Shown here: positions 3,674 to 6,600 of the stretch, piece by piece
How positions within the stretch are numbered: the stretch's first letter is position 1
How the letters are laid out: the number at the start of each line of letters is the position of its first letter
Source of the DNA: a virus
Taxonomy: Duplodnaviria; Heunggongvirae; Uroviricota; Caudoviricetes
Strand: one strand, 5' to 3'
IMG/VR virus record: IMGVR_UViG_2879770953_000004
Length of the DNA stretch: 38,987 nucleotides
Program-made: the position numbers

Positions 3674-6600
3674 TGACGCTCATCACGCAGTTGTTTGACC
3701 CATCTTGTCATTGTGGAAAGGCCAACATCCATAGCTTTGGCGGCATCTGCCACCGTGTATTTCTGGTCAACAACCAGTTGAGCGGATTCGCGTTTAAACT
3801 CTGCGCTAAAATTTCTTTTTTTCATTGGAGCACCTGTGTTGTTCTGAGGTGAGCATATCACCTCTGTTCAGGTGGCCAAATTCAGTGTGCCACTTCATGA
3901 GTCCAGGAAGTTCTCTGTGAAGGGTCTTGTCAGTCCTTTATATTGGGTGATTACAACTCATTGATGAATAAGGGTTTTTCTACAAGCTATCAACTGGATA
4001 GCTTGATGTGACCAACTGAAAGATACAGCTTTCCGGCTTTGTCAAGAGATTTCACTACCCACCAGCTAAAAATATTTCAGAGGCGGGAGTGATTGGAGGT
4101 TAGGATGGGTCTTTGTGGTTGTCTTCACGGCCTCTGTCCTTCAGGTCAAACGACCATTCTCGACCGAACAACCGAAACACGATGAACACCCTGACAATGA
4201 CATAGCGAAGTAGTAAGCCTGCGAACAGACCCACACCCCCACCAGCCCATAAATCAGATGACCCCAATTCTTGAGGGAGGTTAAACATTCAATGTACCTT
4301 CTGTGTGCAATGCAAAAACATGTGACCAAATACATAGCCACGCTTCATATTTCCCCCTCTCTCATAAACCCATTATACCACAAATGTTACGAAATTGTTA
4401 CGTAAATGCTTGACATTAATCCTTGAAAATGCTAGTATTGTATGTATTTAGTTAACAGAATAATAACATTCCATAAGGGTCAGAATATGAATGAACGACA
4501 GAGAATTTCAAAGGTTTCTTGAAGAGAGTAAGGCAAGAAACAAGCACAACTCCTACGCTTACACAAACTCCCCCACCAGCTACGAACTGCCAGCCTTTTC
4601 CAAAACCGAACGTAAAAACATTGAAGCGCTCATTCGTAGCATTACGCCACGGGTAAGACACATGCCAACACGCAAAGAAAAAGAGAACACTTTAAAGACT
4701 TTCCTGATGAGTTTTGATAGCTACGAACAATTACCATCACGAATTGAAGATATTATTATCGGCACTTGTCGCAGCTTTGGAAGAGATAATTATCACCGAA
4801 AAGTTTTCTATTTACTACGAAATATTGACAAGATTAGCTCAAGCACAATAACAAGTTATCTACAGCGTCAAGCGACCCGATTAAGCCATGAGCTACCAAG
4901 TGATAAATATTGCGCTAACTTAGCCACCATTTGCATGAAAGTTATTGAGACAATTAATCATCATGTGGAAGTGGGCAATATTAGCCTTACAACCAGTGAA
5001 CCAGATTTTGAATTTGACCCCTATATTTTGGAGGAATTTTAAAATGAATAAACACACTTTGACCCGTATTTCAGAAGAAGCTTTTCACGAGCTTACCCGA
5101 ATTAAACAGACAACTAACCTGCCTCATCAAACTATTATGCAGCTTGCAATTGCTAAAGAGGTCACTGAGTCGGATTTACTGAAATATCCAGTTTCTAAAG
5201 GTCGCAGACACATCAGAATTACTAAGAACGCTCTGGCTACTCTGAAGGAACTGAACAACTTTAAAATTGATATTGCCCGACTATTGAGCATCAAGATTCA
5301 CAAGCTATCGATGGGGGTTTAATGCTATGCATTACCTTTGAATACCACACAGATAAAATGATTCGCTACATCTCCGACCTCCTGATTAAAGGAAACGGAT
5401 TCGGTGACATCTTTAACTCAAGAGATATTTTCATTAAAGCCATTGGCCCAAATGAAACACTGAAAGCAGCAGTTAAACTGGAATGGTTTGAGCGTCACAA
5501 GATTGAATTAGGTTATTGGGGTGAGGAGGTTTTATGAAACCTTGGCATGAAGATGTTAGGCGATATTTTACAGAACACCTTACCTATGATGAATCCAGTG
5601 ATTCCCTGTGCTGGTCTGATGGAGAGTCGGTCACGATAAATACCGACGACTACGGCAACAAAACATTTAATATAGGTCGATACACATTCTATGTGAAATA
5701 TGTTGTCTGGTTCCTTTATCATGGCTATCAATCCAATAAGCAAATTATCCATCGAAATGGTAACAGAGCCGATACCAGACCAAAAAATCTTATGCAAGTC
5801 CGAGACTTTAAGAGAAATTAGAAAAACAGCTTCTCAGACGCTCTCAATCGCATTCTAACGCAAAAAACTACCTTATTTTAGGGTGGACCACTGTACAGGC
5901 TACCCCTGAAAAAGACTGTTTAGCTCGTTACAGAGCGATTGAGGAGGTCTGGTAAAAAGGAGATTTTAGGAAATGAGAGAATATGAATTACAGATTTTCG
6001 TTGATAGCGACACTGCTATGATGGTGCAAAGCTTCATTGATGCAGGTGTGGAAATTGATTTTGATAAATTACTAAAGCTGATGGCTGATAATGCAGAAAA
6101 CATCTCTGACTTTATTCAGTCGGTGGAGTTTAACGAGCCTCGAATGATGTTACCAATTACAGACAGTAATATGAAAAGATTGGTTATTGAGCAAACGAAC
6201 AAATACAGTATTTCCCCAGAGCAATTTTTGAAAGGTGCTGTGACAATCCTGTACAGCGATAATATTTTGGTTACGGATTCCGTGAGGGTTCACTAATGGG
6301 CTTAATAATTACTTGGACGTTGCTTGGCTTATTTGTTGGTTGCTGGGTGGGTAACACAGTAAATAAGAATTGATGTTATCAATATGTTAAAAGCTGTTGA
6401 CAAATAACCTTAAGCATGAGATGATGGTAATAGGGGGAGCAACTCTTCCTGAATTAAACTATTAATCATTCTACATCAATGATAGTTATTCTGAGTTGGA
6501 AAGGTGCAATGCTTTTCGTCATGGCCTATTTAGCCCACACTAGATAGGCTATCTCAAAAAGTCTTTGTTCATTCGTTATTGAATCCTTTGGATGTTCTTT

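Follow-up and report, generated by a model that had tools for sequence, protein, structure and literature searches.

A putative satellite-like element of Escherichia and Shigella with sequence links to Felix O1-type phages carries a five-gene operon that ends in a small-protein gene missed by annotation

The window analysed here, a stretch of 38,987 nt from the virus record IMGVR_UViG_2879770953_000004 of IMG/VR, carries a compact block of small genes, g1 to g5 followed by a 25-codon open reading frame (micro-ORF). The block is one regulated operon that yields five proteins and a sixth product, a membrane peptide of 25 amino acids (aa), and it is the first operon of an integrative element of about 12 kb with a large serine recombinase. 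We consider it probable, at roughly 60%, that it provides the control and effector (anti-helper) functions of a satellite-like element that exploits Felix O1-like virulent myophages. What is new is probably such a satellite-like element tied to virulent Felix O1-type phages, together with a small-protein gene that annotation has missed. The block has the following layout:

4491-5042, plus strand: g1, 183 aa (from the list of open reading frames and the sequence)
5044-5322, plus strand: g2, 92 aa, starting one base past the g1 stop codon
5322-5537, plus strand: g3, 71 aa, TAATG overlap with g2
5534-5821, plus strand: g4, 95 aa, ATGA overlap with g3
5822-5972, plus strand: structured spacer of 151 nt between g4 and g5
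5973-6296, plus strand: g5, 107 aa
6296-6373, plus strand: micro-ORF, 25 aa (MGLIITWTLLGLFVGCWVGNTVNKN), sharing TAATG with the g5 stop codon

A purine-rich Shine-Dalgarno-like motif, read from the sequence, lies upstream of every start codon of the block, from g1 to g5 and including the micro-ORF. A first-pass annotation had described a run of four genes with abutting or overlapping stop and start codons, and the coordinates of g1 to g4 and their TAATG and ATGA junctions are as it claimed. Its extension of translational coupling to five genes holds for g1 to g4 and fails for g5, which begins 151 nt downstream of g4. The spacer folds into a long imperfect hairpin (-47.5 kcal/mol, z-score of -3.95 against shuffled sequence). 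As the g4-g5 gap is this long and stably folded, we distinguish two coupled groups, g1-g4 and g5-micro-ORF, which are likely present on one transcript. The proposal that the products are co-regulated as a single unit is borne out by the stop/start overlaps, one strong promoter, and common operator-like sites. The uncorrected ratios of nonsynonymous to synonymous polymorphism (pN/pS), computed among related copies, were 0.36 for g1, 0.17 for g2, 0.26 for g3, 0.08 for g4, and 0.33 for g5; every block gene is under purifying selection.

The block matched 467 of 5426 complete Escherichia coli genomes at about 80-91% identity, always in the chromosome, and a megablast search against phage and plasmid collections gave no match. 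The element also occurs in Escherichia albertii and Shigella. It splits yecE (DUF72) cleanly, and other copies lie between yciI and tonB or adjoin msyB, which gives at least three chromosomal integration sites with a constant gene order at all of them. In the relatives, this order is variable cargo, a stretch of 1.1-1.4 kb free of open reading frames, g1-g5, genes for 234 and 70 aa, a tape measure gene, a 'baseplate' gene, and the recombinase gene on the opposite strand; the cargo seen includes a 277-aa or 306-aa gene, an AP2-HNH gene, and a Dam methylase or small resolvase gene. Within Escherichia and Shigella, homologues of the block are not scattered through different contexts: their order is strictly kept at three integration sites. 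Outside the genus only g1 has relatives. The first-pass annotation had also proposed to examine whether the block co-occurs as a unit outside prophages; comparative genomics met it only within the one element of about 12 kb. The annotation's alternative of a phage accessory region came near the truth, except that the host element is not a prophage: it has only two structural genes, both related to those of a virulent phage. As is characteristic of satellites, the element is small, site-specifically integrated, and devoid of most virion and replication genes.

A search of metagenomes with g4 returned 22 loci. One of them, contig OOBX01000469.1 (23,009 bp), repeats a unit of 11,477 bp exactly twice, head to tail. 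The unit comprises the whole element and no chromosomal flanks, and its large serine recombinase has just 34% identity to that of the E. coli element. This dimer fits a circular or concatemeric free form and is the one hint, an indirect one, at helper-dependent induction, packaging, and transfer.

The element has specific sequence links to a single phage group, namely its tape measure protein, its tail tube initiator, a shared non-coding motif, TGTTA repeats, and an antisense loop. The features behind the first three are listed here with the two genes that precede the tape measure gene:

2218-2284, plus strand: shared non-coding segment with core GGGAACGATAAGACCAGAGGTAGTGACC at 2252-2279
6769-7473, plus strand: g6, 234 aa, C-terminal half coiled-coil-like
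7497-7709, plus strand: g7, 70 aa
7864-9930, plus strand: tape measure protein, 688 aa (PF20155, E value 1.7e-20; phrog_4036, E value 1.8e-97)
10104-10877, plus strand: tail tube initiator homologue, 257 aa (PF21821, E value 1.2e-17)

The tape measure gene and the gene after it showed about 74% nucleotide identity to 283 phage records, and those checked among them (Felix O1, REP8, Henu11, and mistaenkt) are Ounavirinae of the genera Felixounavirus, Mooglevirus, and Suspvirus. At the protein level, the tape measure protein and Felix O1 ORF67 share 30% identity, and both termini as well as the middle are conserved; the 257-aa protein shares 67% with ORF68. In phage Bas63, the gene that immediately follows the tape measure gene encodes gp18, the tail tube initiator according to cryo-electron microscopy (PMC12609058). 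As ORF68 occupies the position of gp18 in Felix O1, we equate it with the tube initiator on the grounds of gene order. Both g6 and g7 occupy the position of the tail chaperones in the phage, and g6 occurs in two types that are only about 25% identical.

The non-coding segment 2218-2284 matched 35 phage records with 80-90% identity over 40-60 nt, and among the 25 listed of these, all bear Felix O1-like names and have genomes of about 83-98 kb. Its counterpart lies in the large non-coding region of the phages, and in phage ECP2307 it is located inside a 592-bp exact terminal direct repeat. We considered the motif 2252-2279 as a packaging site; it is missing from several element variants and is therefore not an essential packaging site, so that we treat it only as a lead, with a possible role in packaging, as an origin, or as a promoter.

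The further two links concern the promoters of the element and the leader of its tail genes:

4410-4438, plus strand: promoter P1, TTGACA-17-TAGTAT with extended -10, from a promoter scan
4385-4400, plus strand, and 4453-4468, minus strand: sites flanking P1, TGTTA-N6-TGTTA and an inverted copy
6374-6389, plus strand: P2 site, TGTTA-N6-TGTTA, directly after the micro-ORF
6397-6425, plus strand: promoter P2, TTGACA-17-GATGAT, predicted to drive the leader and the genes for g6, g7, tape measure protein, and tube initiator
6426-6768, plus strand: structured leader, fold z-score of -6.2 for the whole leader
6615-6651, plus strand: terminator-like hairpin in the leader
6648-6737, plus strand: 27-bp hairpin in the leader, -37.7 kcal/mol, z-score of -7.05
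6684-6705, plus strand: 22-nt loop of this hairpin, which holds CTCTTCTAAGTTCGT

P1 and P2 are predicted sigma-70-type promoters. The pattern TGTTA-N6-TGTTA occurs three times in the 39-kb window, where 0.02 matches are expected, and only at P1 and P2; nearly all related copies have the same three sites in corresponding positions. The P2 region 6374-6425 is nearly invariant among 10 copies with diverged flanks. In the Felix O1 genome, the non-coding stretch 12700-13930 contains 32 TGTTA motifs, which corresponds to 26 per kb versus 3.2 per kb elsewhere; their modal spacing is 11 nt, and 13 of the 16 paired sites of the genome are found there. This array is presumably the binding array of a phage protein, and we found no account of it in the literature examined. 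More generally, the convergent non-coding or terminal-repeat region of Felix O1-type phages (also positions 1-592 of ECP2307) carries more than 30 TGTTA motifs phased at 11 bp.

The loop sequence CTCTTCTAAGTTCGT is perfectly antisense (15 of 15 nt) to Felix O1 positions 41853-41867, which are located 14-28 nt upstream of the start codon of the phage tape measure gene. All 15 nt also match in REP8, 14 of them in mistaenkt, and 13 in Henu11, and the start region of the element's own tape measure gene differs at several of the target positions. Of 3000 shuffled loops, 4 reached 15 nt anywhere in the phage, and the loop core is kept in 8 of 10 copies of the element. The hairpin loop may act in trans as an antisense regulator of the phage gene. 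In the full-text literature, most subscription journals aside, we found neither a link of satellites to Felix O1-type phages nor a description of the element.

The window begins about 90 bp inside the element, and this copy extends from position 1 to about 13,800. Apart from the operons described above, it contains the following:

1-834, plus strand: 277-aa cargo gene at the left end of the element, collinear with positions 4001-4834 of the E. coli copy L002
about 2634-4136: IS3-family insertion sequence in the non-coding region of the element
10892-13751, minus strand: large serine recombinase gene, with Resolvase, Recombinase, and Zn_ribbon_recom domains on two fragments
11719-13049: IS2 copy inside the recombinase gene

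The recombinase is intact in the relatives (507 aa), and its break points in the window follow from collinearity with L002. The copy in the window is inserted in yecE. As two insertion sequences have entered it, it can no longer move; the block itself is intact. A homologue of the 277-aa cargo protein is encoded in Enterobacter elements (E value 9e-77). The stretch free of open reading frames upstream of g1 is found in all copies with 1.1-1.4 kb (835-2633 plus 4137-4384 in the window, 6291-7729 in L002); it had no Rfam match, and a repeat finder revealed no obvious iterons. With Rfam, the whole element in the window gave only two sub-threshold matches to miRNA families, and L002 gave none. Beside the element, positions 13853-17694 hold an N-terminal yecE fragment, a lambdoid tyrosine integrase gene (14438-15583, minus strand), and a Q antiterminator gene (16999-17694); the presence of the latter two beside the yecE fragment indicates a second, unrelated prophage at the same locus. 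A further IS3-family element is located at 15707-16863 (open reading frames of 100 and 272 aa), and a second IS2 copy lies at the end of the window (37759-38987).

Among the block proteins, g1 is a helical orphan protein and a marker common to related small integrative elements of other Enterobacteriaceae. It is 100% identical to a Shigella flexneri protein present on 104 contigs, which assigns the window to this species, and its structural model, with a mean confidence (pLDDT) of 75, matched no solved fold. Distant g1 relatives with 27-36% identity are found in Enterobacter, Leclercia, Cronobacter, Kluyvera, and Citrobacter, where the integrative elements that carry them are small and encode a tyrosine integrase and a small resolvase; g2-g5 were not found in these elements outside the genus. 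Those of Enterobacter and Cronobacter (L013 6684-14775, L014, and L015 7949-19339) also encode a DUF4145 protein and have the 277-aa and 306-aa cargo genes in common with the E. coli element, and the Cronobacter element has a tape measure gene of 734 aa. Three phased TGTTA motifs are present about 90 nt upstream of the Enterobacter g1-like genes, too. A search of genome contigs with g1 returned only E. albertii, a search of viral contigs with the distant g1 relatives returned nothing, and a tblastn search of all phage records with g1-g7 gave a single weak match, to g1. Profiles of g1-g3 and g5-g7 matched none of the Felix O1 open reading frames.

For g2, a weak similarity to DndE was found (Pfam E values of 0.08 and 0.015, TIGR03184 E value of 8e-4), in all cases below the curated cut-offs. 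The sequence has two beta-alpha-alpha-like halves, and it is possible that g2 binds DNA. An AlphaFold2 model of g5 from the single sequence had a pLDDT of 50, so that only its secondary-structure pattern is usable; with low confidence, this pattern suggests two beta-alpha-alpha units. The idea that g2 and g5 are duplicates was abandoned, as they are unrelated according to hhalign. Neither PADLOC and NCBIfam nor Pfam and PHROGs returned anything for g1, g3, or g5, and PDB sequence searches with g1 and with profiles of g2 and g5 were likewise negative.

The HNH motif that the first-pass annotation had read in the fourth gene was confirmed by a match to Pfam PF13392 (HNH_3; E value 1.8e-8, 34.3 bits at a cut-off of 24.8, residues 53-89), and PHROGs matches to phrog_99 and phrog_959, both 'HNH endonuclease', had an E value of 1.2e-8. 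By its sequence, g4 is classified as a minimal protein of the HNH_3 nuclease domain family. When g4 is aligned with the AP2-HNH paralogue from the cargo region of relatives, its H73 and N85 fall on the H and N of that protein. In the finger, the 'NN' pair is replaced by 'DT', and the last ligand would be the C-terminal residue N95. In a large protein database, the relatives formed just six clusters, of which five showed 92-100% identity, and every named one is from Escherichia; the g4 profile also matched the HNH protein ORF95 of Felix O1 (E value 9e-7), and a PDB sequence search with g4 found no solved relative. The cargo region of many E. coli copies contains a 174-aa HNH_3-AP2 gene of the homing endonuclease type (L002 5766-6290, minus strand), which is 30% identical to g4 and is not present in the window copy.

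The centre of the operon appears in the compared copies as two slowly evolving alleles between the fast-evolving g1 and g5. Among seven copies of the HNH type, mean nucleotide identities were 75% for g1, 90% for g2, 97% for g3, 98% for g4, 97% for the spacer, and 76% for g5. In the other allele, g3, g4, and the spacer are replaced by a single 128-aa gene, whose product has a weak C-terminal helix-turn-helix, and by an unrelated spacer; the g2 of this HNH-less allele (g2B) is of a different type and about 55% identical. Wherever g4 is missing, g3 is missing as well, so that g3-g4 is exchanged as one cassette, and the spacer 5822-5972 goes with the respective g2-g4 allele.

From the combination of a small nuclease and a membrane peptide, the first-pass annotation had suggested a toxin or defence module. 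The block would then be a self-contained toxin-antitoxin or anti-phage defence module, carried as cargo, with the HNH protein and/or the peptide as toxin and a small DNA-binding protein as antitoxin. An HNH nuclease and a hydrophobic peptide of 21-25 aa coupled to a small, possibly DNA-binding protein are indeed what such a module could consist of, defence cargo is frequent on mobile elements and satellites, and the element may shield its host by interfering with phages. However, no protein reached a PADLOC E value better than 0.003 and none of these matches was meaningful, no toxin, antitoxin, or defence family was found in Pfam or NCBIfam, and the block has only ever been seen in this one mobile element. 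There it is located at a fixed core position and not in the cargo region, and its promoters share their operators with the tail gene operon. In addition, g3-g4 can be replaced by the unrelated 128-aa gene while the rest is kept, so that the other genes do not depend on the nuclease as a partner. We therefore regard a toxin or defence module as unlikely.

A second explanation sees a decaying prophage remnant, in which g4 is a selfish homing endonuclease that has spread among the copies and the block has no concerted function. The two insertion sequences in the window copy agree with decay. HNH_3 is a typical homing endonuclease family with a second HNH_3-AP2 gene in the cargo of relatives, g3-g4 shows presence/absence polymorphism, and the nucleotide identity of g2-g4 reaches 90-98% in copies that share about 75% in g1 and g5. 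We considered a homing sweep as the cause of this near-identity and dropped it, as the allele with g2B and the 128-aa gene is equally conserved (95-99%) between copies with g1 and g5 differing by 20-35%; the low diversity is therefore not specific to the HNH gene. The g4 pN/pS of 0.08 is the strongest constraint in the block, which speaks for a functional protein and against a selfish gene in decay, and the ATGA overlap fuses g4 into the operon. The architecture of about 12 kb with an intact recombinase recurs at three sites and in three species, and once as a flank-free dimer, which does not look like random decay. Compared with the nicking homing endonuclease I-HmuI and with AP2-HNH homing endonucleases, g4 scores above the family cut-off and, in the alignment with its AP2-HNH paralogue, retains the motif's His and an Asn, but it has no NUMOD, AP2, or helix-turn-helix part and is operon-fused instead of free-standing. 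In sum, g4 combines the presence/absence polymorphism of a homing endonuclease with the lack of a Pfam-detectable DNA-recognition domain and of an HNH-specific sweep, and we regard this explanation as quite unlikely.

The 25-codon reading frame of the first-pass annotation proved to be a real gene for a single hydrophobic helix, with an ATG that overlaps the g5 stop codon; only its coordinates (6297-6374) had been given one base too high. It was found in 15 of 15 related copies, each with the TAATG junction to g5 and with its Shine-Dalgarno motif kept, and it is still paired with g5 in a variant whose g5 is only 25% identical. Three types of the peptide occur, namely type 1 with 25 aa (MGLII(T/A)WTLLGLFVGCWVGNTVNKN and near variants), type 2 with 21 aa (MELVIICFVLIGMIAGASIKV), and type 3 with 22 aa (MELVIMWTLLGIAIAFAISMEK), and all are hydrophobic (hydropathy index GRAVY of 1.0-2.2) with a polar or charged end. 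For the 25-aa alleles, pN/pS is 0.21 in frame versus 1.26 and 2.52 in the other two frames. Because of the in-frame selection, the kept TAATG junction and Shine-Dalgarno motif, and the three hydrophobic types, we conclude that this is a genuine small-protein gene, whose product is predicted to be a single hydrophobic helix with a polar tail. It was not annotated by RefSeq in any relative examined. This lack of annotation, the shortness of the frame, and the contact of its last codons with the conserved TGTTA sites of P2 would suit an untranslated micro-ORF that is conserved as regulatory DNA of P2, but this is very unlikely, as changes are mostly synonymous in the micro-ORF frame alone, three unrelated nucleotide versions each maintain 21-25 hydrophobic codons with junction and Shine-Dalgarno motif, and the pairing with g5 outlasts the divergence of g5.

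With its 21-25 aa, single hydrophobic helix, and polar end, the peptide resembles type I toxins such as Ibs, Ldr, TisB, and Hok, as well as LidI of the PLE satellites. Unlike the type I toxins, the micro-ORF is apparently translated by coupling to an upstream protein gene and not from its own repressed mRNA, and a search with the Rfam toxin-antitoxin RNA families gave no match in the window element or the L002 copy; an antisense RNA of another kind is possible. Compared with LidI, the peptide is much shorter.

The closest parallel to the whole element is PLE, a satellite in Vibrio cholerae that exploits the virulent myophage ICP1. It encodes a large serine recombinase, a small membrane protein (LidI), and NixI, an HNH/N nickase directed against ICP1 replication (PMC9410903). 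For chimeric tails, PLE supplies a tape measure protein, a chaperone, and a hub of its own, and it makes a small RNA that binds phage tail transcripts (PMC12987554). The element described here likewise is a small integrative element with a large serine recombinase and mostly orphan genes, a nuclease of the I-HmuI-type HNH/N group as in NixI, a small membrane protein as in LidI, its own tape measure and baseplate-proximal tail genes, a putative regulatory RNA aimed at phage tail transcripts, and a virulent partner phage about seven times its size. It differs in size (12 kb versus about 17-18 kb for PLE), in its hosts Escherichia and Shigella, and in the phage group Ounavirinae. Moreover, g4 has only 95 aa, lacks a DNA-binding part, and is dispensable in some variants, and the tail genes are homologous to those of the phage even at the DNA level, whereas the PLE tape measure protein is only about 20% identical to that of ICP1. 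A Pfam scan of the open reading frames of the element found no RepA_N, Pol I-type, or other replication initiator. As no RepA_N-type initiator was found, we speak of a similarity of design and not of PLE membership.

P4-like satellites, PICIs, and capsid-forming PICIs (cf-PICIs) of Enterobacteria resemble the element as integrative elements of about 10-15 kb in E. coli, and they depend on a helper phage. These families have tyrosine integrases and temperate helpers, and their hallmarks are the alpha primase and psu, sid, and delta in P4, Pri-Rep, AlpA, and the small terminase in PICIs, and capsid genes in cf-PICIs. None of these hallmark genes was found in the element by Pfam. Some cf-PICIs carry predicted tape measure genes (PMC12987554).

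Taken as an anti-helper operon, the block could work in the following way. A TGTTA-binding protein would set the state of P1 and P2, and this protein would be either a repressor of the element (g1, g2, or g5) or a phage protein. In the former case, phage DNA that enters and replicates would titrate off the repressor with its many TGTTA sites, and with either type of binder the operon would be switched on at phage infection. The nuclease g4, possibly together with g3, would then nick or cut phage or element DNA in a manner similar to NixI, g2 and g5 would bind DNA, and the peptide would act in the inner membrane, either on lysis timing like LidI or as a small toxin. From P2, the hairpin loop of the leader would pair with the ribosome-binding region of the phage tape measure gene, and the element's own tape measure protein and tube initiator would be made and give rise to hybrid tails.

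At its boldest, this leads to a true helper-dependent satellite of Felix O1-type phages that belongs to an undescribed family, with the block as sensing and attack module. TGTTA-held P1 and P2 would fire on infection, nuclease and peptide would hit phage replication and lysis control, the hairpin would silence the phage tape measure gene, and hybrid tails would carry the 12-kb genome. We propose this full version tentatively, at a little less than even odds.

Several points weigh against an anti-helper operon of a satellite. Satellite behaviour, that is, induction, packaging, and interference, is something we infer from sequence, as we do the functions of the individual proteins. The element has no recognised gene for replication, capsid remodelling, or a terminase, and its window copy is disabled by the two insertion sequences. 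As g1, g2, g3, and g5 have no recognisable fold or family, their roles are guesses, and a ribbon-helix-helix reading draws on a model with a pLDDT of 50 and on a reading of the sequence pattern. In g4, the last metal ligand is uncertain, as the protein ends there, and no DNA-binding domain was found by Pfam, with the chain ending directly past the catalytic finger. P1 looks strong enough to be constitutive, the 2218-2284 motif is not shared by all element variants, and the dimeric contig, a single case, could stem from an assembler's double pass round a circle.

If the satellite reading is true, the element is a counterpart of PLE in about 9% of complete E. coli genomes. Among the satellites in the cited literature, PLE is the only one that exploits a strictly virulent phage and is studied in detail, and the conflict between a satellite and a virulent phage would become testable in the best genetic model. 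Three mechanisms lend themselves to such tests, namely a promoter switch that reuses the repeat of the phage, an antisense loop directed at the start of the phage tape measure gene, and a conserved 25-aa membrane peptide missed by annotation. The partner phages of the Felix O1 type serve widely in typing, biocontrol, and therapy and can be obtained from standard collections, and an element of this kind could account for some of the failures of Felix O1-type phages on natural isolates.

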